Notes: generated by a model from the sequence alone, not told the origin. DNA of 64,000 bases from Burkholderiales bacterium (GCA_038237415.1 JBBRYR010000008.1:25852-89851), one strand, 5' to 3'. Positions 3,266 to 11,380 are shown, numbered from the stretch's first letter. Translations and numbers: made by a program.

Positions 3266-3814
3266 TTACGGCGCCACTACCGCAGCGCGCAATTTCAAGC
3301 CAATGTCCTTGGTGAGAATCTGAATCTTGGGATCAATGGCCTCACGGCTGGTTTCCACCACTTTTTCACCAAACGCGCGTTCGAATTGCGGGACCAGGGA
3401 CTCAAATTTCTTTTTCACGGGCGACTCAAACAGCGCAACGAGTGCGCGCAGTTCCTCTTCGCTGAAGTTTTTCATCAGCAAGGGGCCCACGGTGGGTCCC
3501 TTTAGACGCAAGGCTTCTGCACGCACAAGGGGAGTCGCTTCATTGATGTATTTCTGGACATCCGGAACAATGGCCTTGAGTGTGGCCTCCTGCTTCTCCG
3601 CATTGACACGCCCTTGCAGGGCAACCCGTGCCTGCAACAACGCATCAGTTGCAGGCCTTTGCGCCATGGTGATAGCAGCATCTTCGATGTGCCACAGCGC
3701 AAGGACTCGCTGCACCAGGGCTTGTTTTGCATCGTCCGAGCTTTGGGCATGTACCAGGTTGGTAGCCACCAACGCAAGGAATACCAGCGCACAGGATTGA
3801 AGTGTTTTTTTCAT
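3266..3814 (-). CDS. DUF2059-like secreted helical protein, last gene of the fil-like operon
   Basis: Signal peptide MKKTLQSCALVFLALVATNLVHA; KNFSEEELRALVALFESPVKKKF motif typical of DUF2059; 13 nt from the upstream gene. Confidence 0.8.
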   Translation of the reverse strand: MKKTLQSCALVFLALVATNLVHAQSSDDAKQALVQRVLALWHIEDAAITMAQRPATDALLQARVALQGRVNAEKQEATLKAIVPDVQKYINEATPLVRAEALRLKGPTVGPLLMKNFSEEELRALVALFESPVKKKFESLVPQFERAFGEKVVETSREAIDPKIQILTKDIGLKLRAAVVAP

Positions 3815-3827
3815 CGTTTGGAAGGGT

Positions 3828-5456
3828 CTAAAAAGCCTGGGTGAACTGGATGCCGAAATAGCGAATGCGGATGCCCCCGGAAACATCCAGCCCGGCATAG
3901 GGGTTGTAAATGGCGTTGAGAAAACCGCTGCAATTCATATTGCAGCTGCTATCGGCGGGAACACTGAAGTTGCCCTCGGCATAGCTGGCAGTTGCGTCAA
4001 TGCGTAGCCCCTTGCGCGTCACGTAGCCCAGCCCAAGACTTTTCACGGCCAGGTCCGGCAAAGGCGCGATCAGATCCATGGCCGAGCCCGGAATGGAACT
4101 GGGGCGTTGCTCATAACCCGCGCGAAGGGTCAGTGCATCGGTCAACTGCAACTGCAGCCCCACGCCATAGGAAATGGTGTTGCGATAGCCACGCTTGAGG
4201 GTCAGCTTGCTCGGATCCTCCAGGCCAAACATGCGCGCCATCATCAGCATGTTGATGTTCTGGTCAAACTGCATGGTCAGCTTGTCCCACTTCTCCCAAT
4301 TGCTCCATCCCGCGTCCAGATTGATCTGGACACGTTTGACGGGCTTGATCTTGACGCCAACCTGCACATGTTCCACAAAAGGCAATTTCATGGTCATGTG
4401 GCCCGACTGTTCCGCGGGAATGGAGGTTGGCAGTCCCACAATCGACGCCGCAATAGGCCCGAACAGACTGGCATACATGCCCTGCACAAAATTGTTGAGC
4501 ATGGGTTCGGCGCGAAACGTATAGCGCCCGGTGAGCACGGTATCCGAGCCACCCTGGTACACGGCCCCCACAGCAAAACTCTCATTGGGCTCCCACAACA
4601 CGCCCAGATTGATCGTGGGATCCATGGGTGCCGTGGCTTCGAAGCTCGCCGAGGCGATTTTATTGAATGGTCGAAGCCGCCCCTCCTGGCCGCCGCCGCA
4701 CAGGCCCAGAAAAAAAACATCGACTGCGTTCCCGCTGTCGCCACACCACGCATCCTGCAGCTTGCCCACAATGCCTAAGAACTTGTTAGGCATGCGCATG
4801 TCGGTATCCAGCGCAAACCCCTGGTGTGCAACAGGAATGCCCACGCCAAAACTCAAGGTATCCGTTGCCTTGTAGGCCACGGATGGCGACACGTACACCA
4901 GGCGCTGCATGATCACCTTGCGTCCGTCAAAGCGGGCTGGGTCGTCCTCGTCGGTACGATTGAACCCCACGCCCTGCGTCACGTAGGTGCCGGTGGCAAA
5001 CGTCCAGGGCGAGCCCGGATCGTTGACGCTAAAGGCAAGGCTACCTCCCACTGCGGCAGGCAGGGGCGCCTTTAATGGGCCGATACCAGGCAGATACACG
5101 GCGGCGCTGACATTGCCGGTGCTGGTACCGGCCACCGGATCGTCTTTAAAGCCACCGACATCAAAACCTTCGGGCGCTGTGAAATGGGCTGTGGGCGACA
5201 GGGATGCGCCGTACACCGAATTCGAGAACCATTTGCCTTTCATCCGGGTCAGGCCCGCCGGGTTGAAGTGAATGGCATCCAGCCCCGGCGGATCCGCCGT
5301 GACGGCATTGCCCAGCGACATGGCCACCACGCTGGTGCCCAGATTCTCGGAGAGCGCCGCATGAGAGCGATCGGAAAAGCCGCCCAGTGCCACCAGCACG
5401 GTGGCAGCAAAAGCCCCCCACCCTCGGGTCACTGCCCGACACTCATGGCGTTGCAT
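3828..5456 (-). CDS. OmpP1/FadL/TodX-family outer-membrane barrel (FilD-like)
   Basis: Signal peptide, then AMSLGNAVTADPPGLDAIHFNPAGLT (FadL N-terminal hatch motif); amphipathic beta strands; C-terminal Phe (QFTQAF). Confidence 0.85.
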   Translation of the reverse strand: MQRHECRAVTRGWGAFAATVLVALGGFSDRSHAALSENLGTSVVAMSLGNAVTADPPGLDAIHFNPAGLTRMKGKWFSNSVYGASLSPTAHFTAPEGFDVGGFKDDPVAGTSTGNVSAAVYLPGIGPLKAPLPAAVGGSLAFSVNDPGSPWTFATGTYVTQGVGFNRTDEDDPARFDGRKVIMQRLVYVSPSVAYKATDTLSFGVGIPVAHQGFALDTDMRMPNKFLGIVGKLQDAWCGDSGNAVDVFFLGLCGGGQEGRLRPFNKIASASFEATAPMDPTINLGVLWEPNESFAVGAVYQGGSDTVLTGRYTFRAEPMLNNFVQGMYASLFGPIAASIVGLPTSIPAEQSGHMTMKLPFVEHVQVGVKIKPVKRVQINLDAGWSNWEKWDKLTMQFDQNINMLMMARMFGLEDPSKLTLKRGYRNTISYGVGLQLQLTDALTLRAGYEQRPSSIPGSAMDLIAPLPDLAVKSLGLGYVTRKGLRIDATASYAEGNFSVPADSSCNMNCSGFLNAIYNPYAGLDVSGGIRIRYFGIQFTQAF

Positions 5457-5466
5457 CGCGATGAAT

Positions 5467-6525
5467 CTAGAAATTCAGCGGCATGTTCATGCCAAACGTG
5501 AAATCCGGGCTGTCTGAGGTAAGACCGATTCCTACCGAGAAGTTCACCGTGGTCAGCGGTGAGACGCGCACACCCAGCCCGAGATTCATCATTGCGGAGG
5601 TCTGGCTGGCCGTCTTGTTTTCCACCGCCTTCCCAGTTACATCGATGTACTTCAAACGCGTGCTGCCAGAGATGGATTCCTGAAAAGACAGCGTGGTGGT
5701 GATGTTGTAGGACATGGCATAGGCAAATCCAACACCAAACCCAACGGTCTGCCCAGGCGTCACCTCGTACAGGGTATTGCCATTGCTCTTCTGGTCCAGA
5801 TTCTTGGCGGGCAATCCAAACGTCACGTTGGCCGAGCCAAAGATGGCGACCGGATCAATCACCTTCGAAGCATTCAGCCCCAGCGTCGCGCTGGTGTAAC
5901 CGGCGCCTGTGGACAGGCCCTGTCCTTCAATCACCTCAAAGGGACTGCGGCCAGTGGGAAGCCGGACCGTCCCATTCACCGTGATGGACGGCAGGGTGCG
6001 GGACAACGGAAAAGGCTGCAGCCGCGCGCCGATGGAAACATCACCAAACCCGTTCACCACCTGGTCGTTGGTGTCAGACTGCGAAAACTTGCTGACGATT
6101 GGCACCGTCAGGTTGACGGTCAGATTGTCTTTGAGCCCGTAGTCCCCGGAGAAGGTGTTGGTCACCGTGTGTCCCCGCGTATTTTGAATGCTGAAGTTGG
6201 TCAACTTCGAATCCGCAAAATTTGCGTTGATCAGTTGCTGCCCGATGTAGGAATAGGTGAGGTCATAAGTGATCGCGCGCTTGCCCTCGCGCAATAGCGA
6301 ATACTGTTTATCCGTGGCGGACAAGGTTTCTTTCAGCACGGTGGCACTGTCCGCATCACCTTCCCGTTTGGCTAACGCATCCTTGGCTGCCTCGGTCGAT
6401 ACCGCCTGCGCAAACGCCGGTATCGAGGGCAACACAGTCAACGCGGAAAGGAGTGCCAGGGCACCCAGGGCAGACAGGCTCGCTCGGTGACGGTTCGTGG
6501 ATTGGATTTTCATGGGTACTTTCAT
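5467..6525 (-). CDS. Outer-membrane beta-barrel 'transporter' (FilC/FapF-like)
   Basis: Signal peptide, short helical segment, GFGDVSIGARLQP and LPTGRSPF motifs, C-terminal MNMPLNF. Confidence 0.8.
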   Translation of the reverse strand: MKVPMKIQSTNRHRASLSALGALALLSALTVLPSIPAFAQAVSTEAAKDALAKREGDADSATVLKETLSATDKQYSLLREGKRAITYDLTYSYIGQQLINANFADSKLTNFSIQNTRGHTVTNTFSGDYGLKDNLTVNLTVPIVSKFSQSDTNDQVVNGFGDVSIGARLQPFPLSRTLPSITVNGTVRLPTGRSPFEVIEGQGLSTGAGYTSATLGLNASKVIDPVAIFGSANVTFGLPAKNLDQKSNGNTLYEVTPGQTVGFGVGFAYAMSYNITTTLSFQESISGSTRLKYIDVTGKAVENKTASQTSAMMNLGLGVRVSPLTTVNFSVGIGLTSDSPDFTFGMNMPLNF

Positions 6526-6544: not shown

Positions 6545-7312
6545 TTATTTGCGTAAGGAGAAATTTCCGAGGTTGGACATCACGGCGCGTTGCAGCGCTT
6601 CGGTGCGGTCGAGCTGGGGCAGCGTGGCATCTGCGCGAATCAGGTCACTGTCGATCACGCCCAGCTCGCGCTCGCCCAGAGCGAGCAGCGCCAGCGTGGT
6701 CGCGCCCTTGGGTGGATTCAGGAGGAACAGGGTGTTGCGATCCCAGAGACTGGTGAACTCCTCCACCGAAAAAACCACATGGCCCGCCGAGGGGTCTGCA
6801 ATGTAGATCCGCCCTCCGCGCGTGCCGCGATAGACCACAAAATGCTTGAACCCGGCGTAATCGATGGGCACGACGGCCGGGGTTTGCAACTCCATCAGGT
6901 CCGAGATCGTTCCCCGAAATCCGTTGGCCTCCACGCCCAGGGTGGCGACATAGCGCTTCATGTCCAGCAGCGAGAAGCCCCGGCGGGCCATGATCTTGTC
7001 GCGCTCCCCGTGCTCCAGCATGCCTTCCATCGCCTGCTGTTCTGTCACGGGGATACCAAGGTAATTGTTGATAACCGTGACCAGCGCAGCAGAGCCGCAG
7101 CTGTAGTCGTAAGTCTGGTGAACGATGTTGCGAAACTTGGCGACCGACTGGGGCTCAATACCCACCCGCTCAGGTGGTGTGCCACCACCGGCCAGCACCA
7201 TGGGCAATGCAAACTGATCAGCCGGTTGCTCTACGGGCGGCACTTGCGTGGCGGCCCCAAAGCCACTAATGCCAGTCGCAATCACCAGGTAAACAATGGG
7301 CCACATACTCAA
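6545..7312 (-). CDS. Stand-alone C39-family cysteine peptidase (FilB/FapD-like)
   Basis: QTYDYSCGSAAL (Cys), HFVVYRG (His), IADP (Asp); hydrophobic N-terminus; no ABC domain. Confidence 0.9.
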   Translation of the reverse strand: MSMWPIVYLVIATGISGFGAATQVPPVEQPADQFALPMVLAGGGTPPERVGIEPQSVAKFRNIVHQTYDYSCGSAALVTVINNYLGIPVTEQQAMEGMLEHGERDKIMARRGFSLLDMKRYVATLGVEANGFRGTISDLMELQTPAVVPIDYAGFKHFVVYRGTRGGRIYIADPSAGHVVFSVEEFTSLWDRNTLFLLNPPKGATTLALLALGERELGVIDSDLIRADATLPQLDRTEALQRAVMSNLGNFSLRK

Positions 7313-7329
7313 AGTCCTTTACCGACGCG

Positions 7330-7812
7330 CTACTTCGCCCACAGGTACAGGTGCCCTGTCTGGGTACCCACACCATTCAGCAGGACGCTGCCAAAATTCT
7401 GATCCGGCTGTACCGCCGCCTGGGCGTCGGTCTGCACACCGAACGACCGGAACCCAAACTGGTTCACCGCAACCACGCCCGGCAGGCCGATATCGATATA
7501 GCTCCCACCCGCAAGATCGGGACGGGGTGCCACGTCGATCGTCAGGCCCACCAGATCTATCACCCCCTTCAAACCTTGGGCCGTGGCATAGGTGGTCGTT
7601 CCGTTGACGTTGAAACTGTGCGTGAAGCTGGCTCCCAGGGCCTGGCTGCCCGCGTCCGACGTATTGACTTGCAGGTGCAGGACCATGCTGATGCCCTCTT
7701 GCCCCACCACCTCGGCAAGATCGTCATTGCTCAGCACGGCCGGCCCCGCCACCGCCGATGCGCCGCCCATACCCAGGACAAGACATGCCGCAATAAAGGA
7801 TCGAAACGTCAT
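7330..7812 (-). CDS. Secreted FilA/DUF6160-like subunit 4 (160 aa)
   Basis: Likely start MTFRSFIAAC (7812), 1 nt after the upstream stop; signal, then LSNDDLAEVVGQEGISMVLHL; C-terminus FGSVLLNG...HLYLWAK. Confidence 0.7.
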   Translation of the reverse strand: MTFRSFIAACLVLGMGGASAVAGPAVLSNDDLAEVVGQEGISMVLHLQVNTSDAGSQALGASFTHSFNVNGTTTYATAQGLKGVIDLVGLTIDVAPRPDLAGGSYIDIGLPGVVAVNQFGFRSFGVQTDAQAAVQPDQNFGSVLLNGVGTQTGHLYLWAK

Positions 7813-7813
7813 G

Positions 7814-8740
7814 TCAGGGCCCGGCCCGCAGCTTGATGTCGATGTACTGCAACTGCATGCTGGCAATGCGGCTGGCGCCCAGGTTGAGTGTCGAAGTCGG
7901 CAGCTGGGAAACGGGATCGGCATAGGTCGCCCGATCGTTCCTGAATGTGATGTTGTCCACCACCACTCTGGCAGCGGGTACTTCGGCGGCGGGGTCCACC
8001 GCCCAGCCAATGCCCAGGTGCAGGTAAGAGCGCCCGCCCTCCGTGATGGCATTGAAAATCCCCGGCTGTGTGGTGACATCCGCCAGCACCCAGGGAGACA
8101 CGCCGTCCGCCGCACTCACATGCACCCCACTCAGGCGCAACTCATGGCTGGCGTCTTCCCGCCCCCGCGGCCGCAGCACAAATGCGCCCAGATCGGCATG
8201 GATGGTCTTGCCAAAGACGACACCCTCCACCCCCGGCGTGGCAGGTGACGTCATGGAAAGCGTGCCACCGTAGCTCGTGAGGTCCTGCACCAGCACCGCT
8301 CCGCCCTGAAAGGTGCCGTCTGCGGTGCCCACGGTCCAGTCAGCGGCCCATTGCCACTTCAGGAGTCCGCTGGCATTGCGTGGCTCCGACAACTGAATCA
8401 CATCTGGCAGGCCTGGCCGGGCAACAATGGACAGGCTATAGGGGTCGGAAAACGTCGCCGCCGGATCGTCCGACCGCGACAGTGCAAGCTGGCTCAAACT
8501 AAAAGTTTGGGCCGGTACGTTCAGTGCGGTGGACTTGCCGACATAGGTCAGCGACAGGTCCCCGGAAAGGGAGTAGTTGCGCAGGTTGAATGCCACGCCC
8601 GCGCCACGCACGACGGAAAGCTCTGCGTCTTCCAGCAGCGTCAGCGCCGCGGCGGACATGGTTGCCAGGGCACACCCGGCCAGCACCATCCAGCGCGCCA
8701 GCAATACCCCGATCGACAAGGCACATGACCGCTGCGTCAT
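7814..8740 (-). CDS. Secreted FilA/DUF6160-like subunit 3 (308 aa)
   Basis: Signal, then LLEDAELSVVRGAGVAFNL; beta-rich; C-terminus LGASRIASMQLQYIDIKL. Confidence 0.65.
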   Translation of the reverse strand: MTQRSCALSIGVLLARWMVLAGCALATMSAAALTLLEDAELSVVRGAGVAFNLRNYSLSGDLSLTYVGKSTALNVPAQTFSLSQLALSRSDDPAATFSDPYSLSIVARPGLPDVIQLSEPRNASGLLKWQWAADWTVGTADGTFQGGAVLVQDLTSYGGTLSMTSPATPGVEGVVFGKTIHADLGAFVLRPRGREDASHELRLSGVHVSAADGVSPWVLADVTTQPGIFNAITEGGRSYLHLGIGWAVDPAAEVPAARVVVDNITFRNDRATYADPVSQLPTSTLNLGASRIASMQLQYIDIKLRAGP

Positions 8741-8745
8741 GGTGT

Positions 8746-9540
8746 TTACTTGGGCACAGCCAGATTGGAGGGCATGGCACCGACTACCCCGCTGACACGG
8801 TCACGCAAATTCAGCCAGAAGCCTGCTGCCGCTTGTTGCGAGGTCAGTCCGGCAATGGACGGATAGGTCACATTCTGGGACTGCACCGCCAGAAAAAAAT
8901 CACGCGTGGGCCCGCTGGCATCACCCAGTTTGAAGGTACCCACCGTTGGCAGCAAGCCCAGGCCGTTCGCGCGCTTGCCATCTGCCGACTCCATGGTGGC
9001 ACCGCTCATAGAATCAAAATTGACTACACCGCCTGCGGTCGAGATGTCCGCGCGCAATGAGCCACTGAGTGCGCGCACCTGGGTTCCCACCAAGCCCTGC
9101 AGACCCTCAAACCCCATGCGCATGCCCACCACCTCACGCGTGGCGGCAGTGGTACCTTGCTTGTAGACAAATTCGAAATAGGGGTTGGTGGCACGCACAT
9201 AGCGCGCACTCTCGCTATCCCCCAGCGCATAGCGACCCAACTGCAACGCCCCGATGTCCACATCAGCGCCCGCACCCAAACCGTTGGTGGGGCCATTGCG
9301 GGCTGCCGCATATTCCCCCAGCCGAATGTCCTTGAAGTTGGCGCTCAGGGTCACGTCTGCATTGAGCGTCATGCGCGTGAAGTCGTACCCCAGTGAACTG
9401 GTGTTGACGAGTTCGATCATGGCTTGACCCCATACCTGCGACAAATGTCCGTCGTCCAGCGCCATGCCCTGCGCGCGCGCGCCACTGGCGAACACCAGTG
9501 TGACAACAAGCCCTGCGACACGAATAGTCCAGTGGTGCAT
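8746..9540 (-). CDS. Secreted FilA/DUF6160-like subunit 2 (264 aa)
   Basis: Start MHHWTIRV (9540); signal, then MALDDGHLSQVWGQAMIEL...DFTRMTLNADV; GFWLNL near the C-terminus. Confidence 0.7.
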   Translation of the reverse strand: MHHWTIRVAGLVVTLVFASGARAQGMALDDGHLSQVWGQAMIELVNTSSLGYDFTRMTLNADVTLSANFKDIRLGEYAAARNGPTNGLGAGADVDIGALQLGRYALGDSESARYVRATNPYFEFVYKQGTTAATREVVGMRMGFEGLQGLVGTQVRALSGSLRADISTAGGVVNFDSMSGATMESADGKRANGLGLLPTVGTFKLGDASGPTRDFFLAVQSQNVTYPSIAGLTSQQAAAGFWLNLRDRVSGVVGAMPSNLAVPK

Positions 9541-9606
9541 GGTGATGGTTCCGAACGAATGCAAAAAAGATCCCGCAGCCCAAGCCACGAGATCCTGGCG
9601 CAATGC

Positions 9607-9639
9607 AAAAGCGATGCCTTTTACCTAAGAGGGCATCAC
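9607..9639 (-). terminator. Weak hairpin/terminator after subunit 1
   Basis: On the minus strand: GTGATGCC-13 nt-GGCATCGC-TTTT, about 10 nt after the stop at 9650. Confidence 0.5.
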
Positions 9640-9649
9640 CTCTGTCACG

Positions 9650-10168
9650 TTAGTTGTGGCCAAACATCCAGATTTTTGTGCCGCCCACATCCAGCTTGGA
9701 CAAAGCAATGCCACCCATGGAGGCGCCGCCGTTACCAGTGGTGATGGAGGCCACGGAGATGTTGAGTCCGTTGGTGCCCGCAACAGCGGGAATGCCGAAC
9801 TGGATCACGTCCTGACCGGTAAAGCCCAGCGGAGCGGCAGCAGCAGTCAATGCAGCTGCAGAAGCACCGAGCGAGAGGCCCGTGCCCATCAAAGCGCCAA
9901 CGGCGGCGGTCTGGAAGTCCGCACCGGAGACCACGTCGATGGTCGCCGCAATCACACCGGTGATACCGATGTTGTTGAAGGCCACGGTGTTGCCGCTATC
10001 GGAGTAAGTGAAAGAGCCAATGCCCACATGCAGATCCGCCACGATGGACACACCGTCCTGGCCGCTGACTTGCGCCAGGCCTTCGTCGTTCACAAGGGTC
10101 ATCGCCGAAGCGGAAAAAGCAAAGGAAGCAAGCAGTGCTGCAGCAGCAGACAATTTGAAAGTTTTCAT
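9650..10168 (-). CDS. Secreted FilA/DUF6160-like subunit 1, probable major subunit (172 aa)
   Basis: RBS AGGAG before MKTFKLSAAAALLASFAFSASA; then MTLVNDEGLAQVSGQDGVSIVADL; C-terminus SMGGIALSKLDVGGTKIWMFGHN. Confidence 0.8.
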   Translation of the reverse strand: MKTFKLSAAAALLASFAFSASAMTLVNDEGLAQVSGQDGVSIVADLHVGIGSFTYSDSGNTVAFNNIGITGVIAATIDVVSGADFQTAAVGALMGTGLSLGASAAALTAAAAPLGFTGQDVIQFGIPAVAGTNGLNISVASITTGNGGASMGGIALSKLDVGGTKIWMFGHN

Positions 10169-10381: not shown

Positions 10382-11380
10382 CTAGCGCAGCGTGGGCGTA
10401 TGACCGAACCAGCGCTTGCATGCCCGGTAGAAATTACTCGGGTCGGAGAACCCCAATGCAAACGTGATTTCCGTGGGATTGAATCCACCCTGCTGGATGT
10501 AGGACTCCGCCATCTCACGGCGCACGCTATCGAGCAAATTCAGGTAGGTCGTCCCCTCCTCCGAGAGGCGACGGCACAGGGAACGCTCGCTCATGCCCAG
10601 GTGCGCAGCAATCTCTTTGCGATGCGCTTCGCCTTTGTGCAAGGACTTGACCAGTTCCCTGCGAATACGATCGCTGGTCACACCCACCGTGCGCCGCTGC
10701 ATCTGCTCCGCAATGCGCTCAGACAGCTCCAGAATGGCAGGGTTGGCCGTGGGGATGGGTAGCAACATGCTGGCAGTACCCAGTTCAATCGCGCAGCGCG
10801 GCGCACCAAATTCCACCACATCACCAAACGATTGATGCCACATGAGTGGATTCAGTGGCGCTTCTCCCGGGTGGTACATCTTCAATATTTTTGCGCGCTT
10901 GCCGGATACGATACGGGAGCCTGCTATCACCATGGATGCAAAGAAATCGAATATCGCAGAGGAAATACAACGTCTGCCTGGAACAATTCCCAGGACAAGC
11001 AGACTTCGGTCTGATGAAGTCTGGAAATCGACGGTTGCCATCGGCCAAAACAGCGGAAGGTACCGCGCCAGGAACTGCAGGCTCTCCTGCGGGTTGTTCG
11101 ACGCAAACAACATATGCGACAGCACGCCCAGGGCTCCCAGCGGGTGGCGCGCCATGCGCAGCCCGATATGGGGGTCGCCGGTTCGGGCGACGGCGATTTC
11201 GAAGGCCACGCTCATCGCATCACTCAGACCACCGGCCGGCAGTTGGTCGACCACGGCACTGTAGATGCCCGCCTCAATACACAAAGCCGCACCGTCGAGC
11301 CCAATATTGTTGAAACCCGTGCACAGCGTTTTGTACCAGCTCAGATCAGCAATTGAATTGGAGTCCATCGGGTCGGTCAT
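10382..11380 (-). CDS. AraC-family regulator (OruR/VqsM-like, ligand-binding N-domain)
   Basis: C-terminal double HTH: IAAHLGMSERSLCRRLSEEG ... ALGFSDPSNFYRACKRWFG. Confidence 0.9.
   Translation of the reverse strand: MTDPMDSNSIADLSWYKTLCTGFNNIGLDGAALCIEAGIYSAVVDQLPAGGLSDAMSVAFEIAVARTGDPHIGLRMARHPLGALGVLSHMLFASNNPQESLQFLARYLPLFWPMATVDFQTSSDRSLLVLGIVPGRRCISSAIFDFFASMVIAGSRIVSGKRAKILKMYHPGEAPLNPLMWHQSFGDVVEFGAPRCAIELGTASMLLPIPTANPAILELSERIAEQMQRRTVGVTSDRIRRELVKSLHKGEAHRKEIAAHLGMSERSLCRRLSEEGTTYLNLLDSVRREMAESYIQQGGFNPTEITFALGFSDPSNFYRACKRWFGHTPTLR

Follow-up and report, generated by a model that had tools for sequence, protein, structure and literature searches.

Four fibre subunits of a Burkholderiales bacterium carry a double-glycine-like leader behind the signal peptide and are encoded beside a stand-alone C39 peptidase, the candidate enzyme for its removal

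Which proteins do the stand-alone C39 peptidases of the periplasm cut, and at which bond? These enzymes have been known since 2017 to be essential for secretion (FapD of the Pseudomonas biofilm amyloid; FilB of Acinetobacter-type Fil fibres), and no description of the leader or of FilB/FapD cleavage sites was found in the literature on FilA/FilB, DUF6160, periplasmic C39 peptidases with double-glycine leaders, or FapD processing. The question is raised by a locus within 64,000 nucleotides of DNA from a Burkholderiales bacterium (GCA_038237415.1 JBBRYR010000008.1:25852-89851; this whole stretch is called the window), where one compact gene row on the minus strand encodes four subunits, a C39 peptidase, and two outer-membrane proteins. 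The locus is best explained as one for a Fil-type surface fibre, kin to the Pseudomonas Fap amyloid system via its export machinery. Its subunits are probably exported by the general secretory (Sec) pathway, cut by signal peptidase, cut a second time by FilB behind Gly-Gln or Gly-Ala, and secreted via FilC and FilD. The genes are the following (window coordinates; lengths in amino acids, aa):

Subunit 1, 9650..10168, minus strand: 172 aa; DUF6160/FilA-like and probably the major fibre subunit; signal peptide 1-22, leader 23-37, mature protein predicted from Asp38
Subunit 2, 8746..9540, minus strand: 264 aa; minor subunit family without a Pfam or NCBIfam name
Subunit 3, 7814..8740, minus strand: 308 aa; all-beta minor subunit
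Subunit 4, 7330..7812, minus strand: 160 aa; weak DUF6160 relative
FilB, 6545..7306 (or from TTG 7312), minus strand: FilB/FapD-type stand-alone C39 cysteine peptidase (PF03412, NF050078, NF058616)
FilC, 5467..6525, minus strand: outer-membrane relative of FapF, the channel for amyloid secretion (NF050079, NF058560)
FilD, 3828..5456, minus strand: OmpP1/FadL-family outer-membrane protein (NF050080, PF03349)

Each subunit starts with a signal peptide whose end is an AxA-like site, and a leader of about 15 residues comes next. The four peptides quoted in a preliminary description of the locus were found as quoted, right behind the signal-peptide-like N-termini (given here from P15 to P1, P1 being the residue ahead of the proposed cut):

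Leader of subunit 1, 10058-10102, minus strand: MTLVNDEGLAQVSGQ, with ...SASA before and DGVSIV after; proposed cut after Gln37
Leader of subunit 2, 9424-9468, minus strand: GMALDDGHLSQVWGQ, with ...ARAQ before and AMIELV after; proposed cut after Gln39
Leader of subunit 3, 8600-8644, minus strand: LTLLEDAELSVVRGA, with ...SAAA before and GVAFNL after; proposed cut after Ala47
Leader of subunit 4, 7699-7743, minus strand: PAVLSNDDLAEVVGQ, with ...AVAG before and EGISMV after; proposed cut after Gln38

Gly-Gln itself was considered as the signal-peptidase site and rejected, because Gln at −1 together with Arg or Ser-Gly at −3 violates the AxA rule and 15 residues upstream there is a site that fits it well. 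The signal peptide of subunit 3 (8645-8740) is unusually long (32 aa) and contains a lipobox-like LAGC; lipidation of this subunit is unlikely because the Cys is not conserved among orthologues, and its assignment as a lipoprotein was rejected.

That the motif is present on all four subunits was upheld by a genome scan, a four-way alignment, and a survey of related loci. For the scan, a P12-P1 matrix built from 33 non-redundant DUF6160 homologues was scored over all six-frame open reading frames (ORFs) of the 3.9-Mb genome. Among 4,285,198 positions, those scoring at least as high as the leaders of subunits 1 to 4 numbered 1, 7, 8, and 6, respectively; the motif is thus far beyond chance. When the four subunits were aligned with each other, only six columns were invariant, and three of these are Leu at P7, Val at P4, and Gly at P2. 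These results bear on the explanation that the resemblance to double-glycine leaders is coincidental and that paralogy of the region next to the signal peptide has conserved the block. Shared descent does account for some of the similarity, since all four subunits hit the DUF6160 model in its N-terminal part, but subunits 2 and 3 have changed past recognition in their mature parts and their families are no longer DUF6160-like there, while the leader positions stayed fixed; the same leader is retained in three otherwise dissimilar subunit families. The extreme genome-wide ranks and the occurrence of the same code on unrelated FapE-like proteins adjoining FapD-type peptidases (see below) also speak against it, and we regard coincidence as very improbable.

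A sequence logo across homologues, which the preliminary description had proposed as a check, was made from 34 non-redundant DUF6160 proteins. With almost no exceptions, Gly-Gln was 15 residues away from the AxA site, and P12, P7, P4, and P2 were conserved (P15, Met in 79%; P12, Ile, Leu, Met, or Val in 95%; P10, Asp in 94%; P7, Leu in 88%; P4, Val in 79%; P2, Gly in 88% and Ala in 11%; P1, Gln in 73%, Arg in 17%, and Lys in 5%), with P14, P13, P11, P9, P5, and P3 varying freely. The pattern is that of an amphipathic helix that a partner reads. The Met at P15, the first residue behind the signal-peptidase site, was observed in its own right: the leader could once have been a true N-terminal double-glycine leader that later gained a Sec signal in front; another possibility is that a further hydrophobic pocket, the fourth (−15), is in use.

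Conservation was further followed in 77 loci (L061-L137) of named Burkholderiales genomes, including Rhodoferax, Ideonella, Piscinibacter, Aquabacterium, Noviherbaspirillum, Duganella, Massilia, and Undibacterium. The leader was kept in 323 of 326 subunit ORFs (117/118, 69/71, 71/71, and 66/66 for subunit classes 1 to 4). Irrespective of class, P2 is nearly always Gly (otherwise Ala), and P1 drifts among Gln, Arg, Lys, Ala, Ser, and Gly. Orthologues of subunit 2 end in Gly-Gln in 66 ORFs; those of subunit 3 in Gly-Arg (55), Gly-Ala (6), Gly-Ser (4), or Gly-Gln (3); those of subunit 4 in Gly-Gly (20), Gly-Gln (14), Gly-Arg (8), Gly-Ala (8), or Ala-Arg (7). The subunit-4 class is the only one in which canonical Gly-Gly leads among the endings (e.g., LDDQELSQVRGG followed by DG). 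Each class has its own preference at P1, almost only Gln for subunits 1 and 2, mostly Arg for subunit 3, and mostly Gly, though very mixed, for subunit 4, possibly because the subunits are processed in a set order or differentially.

How well does this leader fit what C39 peptidases recognize? In the co-crystal of the C39 domain LahT150, leader residues −4 to −11 form a two-turn helix; the consensus for ComA is Leu(−12)-X3-Glu(−8)-Leu(−7) ahead of Gly-Gly, Gly-Ala, or Gly-Ser; and the C39 domains studied so far have a narrow pocket that takes Gly, Ala, or Ser (PMC6363468). At the positions by which LahT150 holds double-glycine leaders, all four subunits in the window agree with the criteria of the same study, being hydrophobic at −12, −7, and −4 and having Gly at −2; P1 is Gln in three of them and Ala in one. 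The term "double-glycine-like" used in the preliminary description therefore holds at these four positions but had to be refined to Gly or Ala at P2 and a variable P1, with true Gly-Gly found often in subunit-4 orthologues. The leader appears to work like a double-glycine leader while standing outside the classical class, because FilB has no fusion to an ATP-binding cassette (ABC) transporter and the leader lies behind a Sec signal.

The peptidase itself has kept its catalytic residues. The ORF of 253-255 aa contains C39 as its only domain, which is separated from a hydrophobic segment at the N-terminus by a linker of ∼45 aa and has ∼55 aa of C-terminal tail behind it; ATG 7306 is its likely start, rather than TTG 7312, because orthologue N-termini begin M-W/L-x-I.... 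Counted from TTG 7312, the catalytic set comprises Gln66 and Cys72 in HQTYDYSCG, His157 in FKHFVV, and Asp173 in IADPSAG; the catalytic Cys that the preliminary description had placed in YSCG is real (codon 7097-7099). Alignment to LahT150 (6mpz) and to PCAT1 (4ry2), a peptidase-containing ABC transporter (PCAT), covered the catalytic motifs, and Gln, Cys, His, and Asp are preserved. QxxxxxCG and DPxxG were retained in 68/68 FilB orthologues, which argues, from sequence, for real proteolysis, and the hydrophobic N-terminal segment was present in 67/68, with a linker of ∼45 residues next to it. Within 9 kb of the subunit genes, FilB, FilC, and FilD were found in 68 of the 77 loci; the nine loci without FilBCD nearby are short contigs or extra solitary subunit copies. 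Lacking an ABC fusion, possessing the hydrophobic segment, and adjoining FilC, the protein is of the FilB/FapD type. FapD has a Sec signal, is functional with the OmpA signal, and acts in the periplasm; its C38A (Cys-to-Ala) mutant abolishes FapC secretion (PMC5557850), and FapE is the only Fap protein found without its N-terminal region (Rouse et al, PMC5557850).

Evidence on the position of the mature N-terminus also comes from structure. The family profile of subunit 1 finds one solved structure, PDB 9XFV (E value 2.5e-45), which together with EMD-66838 represents "pilus-like-alpha", a native filament from untreated karst-cave drip water resolved at 2.9-3.4 Å, whose sequence was read from the map and then matched to a UniProt entry (PNAS 2026, PMC12956863). 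The chain starts DGVSIAGDLNINIGSF... (DGVSIAG), and its residue 1 aligns to Asp38 of subunit 1, i.e., to P1′; in the closest precursors in the protein collection, ...LSQVSGQ stands immediately ahead of this sequence. A Foldseek search with the AlphaFold model of subunit 1 returned 9XFV as the sole significant match (E value 9.5e-10, template-modelling score 0.58-0.66); no significant PDB match was found for the AlphaFold model of subunit 3, and none for the sequence of subunit 4. The models were monomers of subunits 1 and 3 in their post-signal-peptide forms. In that of subunit 1, the predicted local distance difference test (pLDDT) score of the leader is 55-61, residues 6-10 form a short helix, and residue 18 opens the first strand; in that of subunit 3, residues 1-20 have a pLDDT of ∼55, with a helix at residues 6-9, and lie outside the beta core. 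Both models thus place a leader helix of 4-5 residues around P10-P6 and the beginning of the beta core 2-3 residues past the proposed cut. The leader is predicted outside the fold in both, and the integral beta strand that the preliminary description had named as grounds for abandoning its proposal was not seen.

On this evidence, the subunits would be made with two serial N-terminal signals. The Sec signal peptide would carry them across the inner membrane and be removed by signal peptidase I at AxA, exposing a leader of ∼15 residues that reads [M/L]-x-x-[ILMV]-x-D-x-[DE]-L-x-x-V-x-[G/A]-[Q/A/R/G]. As a short amphipathic helix, this leader may fit the side chains of P12, P7, and P4 into a hydrophobic groove of FilB, as in the exporters of bacteriocins and of RiPPs (peptides made by the ribosome and modified after translation). 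FilB would then cut behind P1 and free a mature N-terminus (DGVSI... in subunit 1) that starts the first beta strand. By analogy to PCAT transporters and FapD, cleavage is probably coupled to hand-over to FilC (FapF-like) and FilD, and may be coupled to, or required for, passage through these and extracellular polymerization; a retained leader would block the N-terminal strand, so that subunits could not polymerize in the periplasm. The preliminary description had proposed that a stand-alone, exported C39 peptidase removes a second propeptide to license export or polymerization. The propeptide is borne out by the motif match, the 15-residue spacing, the co-occurrence with the peptidase, the leader lying out of the fold, and the start of 9XFV; FilB as its remover, and the licensing, are kept as inference, the single experimental hint being the secretion block of the FapD Cys-to-Ala mutant.

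Several points weigh against this scheme. That FilB is the cleaving enzyme, in this organism or in any FilB system, is what we infer rather than observe, and its export to the periplasm is likewise taken from homology to FapD, because the hydrophobic segment lacks a basic n-region. Since P1 is usually Gln, Arg, or Lys versus the narrow pocket of known C39 domains, the S1 site of FilB would have to be wider or open to solvent. In Pseudomonas, FapE peptides were absent from the first ∼70 residues, which does not pinpoint a cut at residue 40 (Rouse et al, PMC5557850). Conservation of the prime side, D-G-V-S-I, equals that of the leader, and some of the block's conservation is hence structural. 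The start of 9XFV at P1′ could merely reflect a disordered, retained leader that is invisible in cryo-electron microscopy (cryo-EM), and AlphaFold monomers cannot reveal a strand-swapped role of the leader.

In an alternative, the segment is not removed but serves as an N-terminal extension for assembly or targeting (a donor element or a docking tag for FilC), with FilB binding it without cutting, or cutting elsewhere. In its favor, conservation runs unbroken from the leader into the first strand (G-Q-D-G-V-S-I), a cryo-EM model would start at Asp also with a leader that is merely flexible, and non-catalytic C39-like domains that only bind substrate exist in type 1 secretion systems (PMC5557850). 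However, the hydrophobic spacing (P15, P12, P7, P4) is helical and not that of an alternating donor strand, the leader is of low confidence and detached in two AlphaFold models, the catalytic Cys and the DPxxG Asp motifs are kept in all 68 orthologues, and the modelled chain of the native filament starts exactly at P1′. Moreover, a P1 that exchanges freely among Gly, Ala, Ser, Gln, Arg, and Lys, next to a P2 that is almost always Gly, is what scissile sites typically look like. Retention of the leader is thus considered unlikely.

The P1 residues, unusual for C39 enzymes, could instead indicate that another periplasmic protease removes the leader and that FilB acts on the machinery, e.g., on the periplasmic part of FilC. 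FapF was deemed a possible target of FapD by Rouse et al (PMC5557850) and in a 2025 review, in which processing of FapE or FapF by FapD is still only "thought to" occur. Yet four positions of the leader agree with the C39 recognition code, FilB accompanies it in 68/77 loci, canonical Gly-Gly appears in subunit-4 orthologues, the cluster contains no other conserved protease gene, and inspection of the window by eye found no comparable motif behind the signal peptide of FilC. A different protease therefore seems quite unlikely, and cleavage by FilB remains the preferred explanation.

The gene row is tightly packed. With the start codons of subunit 2 (9540) and subunit 4 (7812, ATG) corrected, the gaps are 5 nucleotides (nt) between subunits 2 and 3, 1 nt between subunits 3 and 4, and 17 nt between subunit 4 and filB, all out of frame. 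The gap between subunits 1 and 2 measures 109 nt and contains a hairpin (9567-9596, minus strand; 13 base pairs followed by a T-run), which looks like a partial terminator and would set the ratio of major to minor subunits. Two neighboring genes flank the row:

AraC-family regulator, 10382..11380, minus strand: directly upstream of subunit 1, listed for context
Small exported protein, 3266-3817, minus strand: start MKKTLQSCALVFLALVATNLVHA..., directly downstream of filD and overlapping the end of the filD ORF

The closest homologues of the locus are in Rhodoferax-like and other Burkholderiales genomes. Subunit 1 scored 65 bits against PF19657 (DUF6160), above the gathering threshold of 27, and subunit 4 scored 23 bits, under that cut-off; subunits 2 and 3 reached this family only with their N-terminal, leader-containing part (E value 0.03-0.13). 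FilB passed the Pfam threshold for peptidase C39 (PF03412, 65.8 bits; cut-off 22) and scored 237 bits against NF050078 (FilB) and 126 bits against NF058616 (FapD). FilC scored 281 bits against NF050079 and 73 bits against the FapF model NF058560; FilD scored 398 bits against NF050080 and 155 bits against PF03349. None of the NCBIfam Fil models, which are of type "exception", was reached at its cut-off (score/cut-off: FilA, 24/220; FilB, 237/475; FilC, 281/630; FilD, 398/970). Judged by these scores, the Fil proteins of the window are relatives of the Acinetobacter proteins and not members at the curated level. The FilF model NF050081 had no match in the genome, but control queries likewise gave none; NF050082 is an unrelated ATPase family. 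Among the Fap models, only FapD and FapF were matched, both below cut-off; no window protein matched FapA, FapB, or FapC, and because homologues of these subunits are lacking, the locus is not a Fap amyloid system.

Is the combination of leader and peptidase restricted to such loci? A wider survey of 401 genomes of the phylum yielded a FilB/FapD-type gene in 33. In the FilB-like tier, the adjoining subunits have a leader ending in Gly-Gln or Gly-Arg, and a locus in another genome of the same order (L044) is a four-subunit operon resembling that of the window. In the FapD-like tier, the gene adjoining the peptidase is FapE-like, and its product has a signal peptide and, past a spacer, [DE]-[DE]-L-x-x-[LMV]-R-G-G followed by F; no family from Pfam or NCBIfam was found for these "RGG" proteins. 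FapE of the Pseudomonas type has LKDQELAQLRGK followed by Y directly behind the signal peptide, and FapE from fap operons in the same genome sample reads ...AQA, ESLFRPIELKDQELAQLRGK, and YVMPG in succession. Two genomes of one genus (L042 and L043) have FilBCD without an adjoining gene for a leader-bearing subunit; their operon comprises FilB (285 bits), FilC, FilD, and a lipoprotein-like gene of 341 aa, with a large LuxR/MalT-type regulator upstream, and other C39 loci in these genomes adjoin small proteins with LSADELADSSGR followed by QG. The genome of the window has a second, unrelated C39-like gene (contig C93, L006, 893-2286) for a lipoprotein-type peptidase of 317 aa with a tetratricopeptide-repeat-like tail. 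The protein encoded upstream of it (147 aa) has a signal peptide, the stretch ...SDTEVAQLAGRIDQAPAGG..., and a membrane helix at its C-terminus, and scores 8.8 on a 15-column leader matrix. We take this pair to be reminiscent of PA2778/PA2779.

These observations allow a broader, tentative proposal, about which we are more doubtful than confident: a Sec signal plus a periplasmic leader of the double-glycine type could be a general two-part export code for the cargo of FapF/FilC-type channels (Fil pilins, minor subunits, FapE-like proteins). FilB or FapD would act as a gatekeeper that docks the helix, cuts behind Gly-X, and feeds the N-terminus into the channel, forming a periplasmic counterpart of PCATs and a separate pilus assembly pathway leading to a filament of new fold (9XFV). 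If FilB does cut the leader, the long-sought substrate of the periplasmic C39 peptidase family would be named. The locus makes the FapD/FilB substrate question directly testable, offering a 15-residue leader with its scissile bond, four substrates, and a filament structure that fits. To build a surface fibre whose subunit fold had not been seen before, bacteriocin-type leader recognition would have been taken over behind a Sec signal; confirmation would establish a new, proteolysis-gated route of fibre assembly, widespread in Burkholderiales and beyond, and a handle to block or engineer such fibres, e.g., with the leader as a secretion tag.

Compared with double-glycine systems (ComA, LahT, PCAT1), the Fil leader is alike in its ∼15 residues, in being hydrophobic at −12, −7, and −4, in Gly at −2, and in position −8, which is acidic in 61% of the sequences, and FilB shares the protease fold and catalytic residues of the C39 domains of ABC transporter maturation and secretion proteins (AMS) and PCATs. 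It differs in standing behind a Sec signal peptide and not at the true N-terminus, in a P1 that is mostly Gln, Arg, or Lys, and in a nearly invariant Asp at −10; its peptidase, not fused to an ABC transporter, would act outside the cytoplasm, by analogy to FapD, and its cargo is a fibre subunit of 120-260 residues. With Pseudomonas Fap, the locus has in common a stand-alone exported C39 peptidase beside a FapF-related outer-membrane protein, and FapE bears a similar motif. In contrast to Fap, however, the cargo consists of folded, beta-rich DUF6160-type pilins and not of Asn/Gln-repeat amyloid subunits, the leader is on all four subunits instead of on one accessory protein, homologues of FapA, FapB, and FapC are missing, and there is an additional FadL-type FilD.

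The Fil system of Acinetobacter (filA-filF; NF050077-NF050081; FilA is a DUF6160 protein) has the same families in the same order (subunit, C39 peptidase, FapF-like, FadL-like), and FilA to FilD are the best NCBIfam matches for four window genes, albeit with scores well under the cut-offs and with four subunit genes in the window versus one filA; in the literature found, Fil is described just as a putative pilus or vaccine antigen, without mention of a leader. The filament 9XFV, from an environmental source organism, serves as a handedness control in a paper that does not discuss processing, operon, or peptidase; it is a homologue of subunit 1 and the only structure with this fold, and its chain begins right behind Gly-Gln. 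The type V pili of Bacteroidia (FimA/Mfa1) are made from lipoprotein precursors matured at the cell surface by an Arg-specific gingipain. Although their pilin fold is unrelated to that of the window subunits, they offer a parallel to the pathway proposed here, in that a protease strips an N-terminal segment from an exported pilin and so licenses its polymerization.

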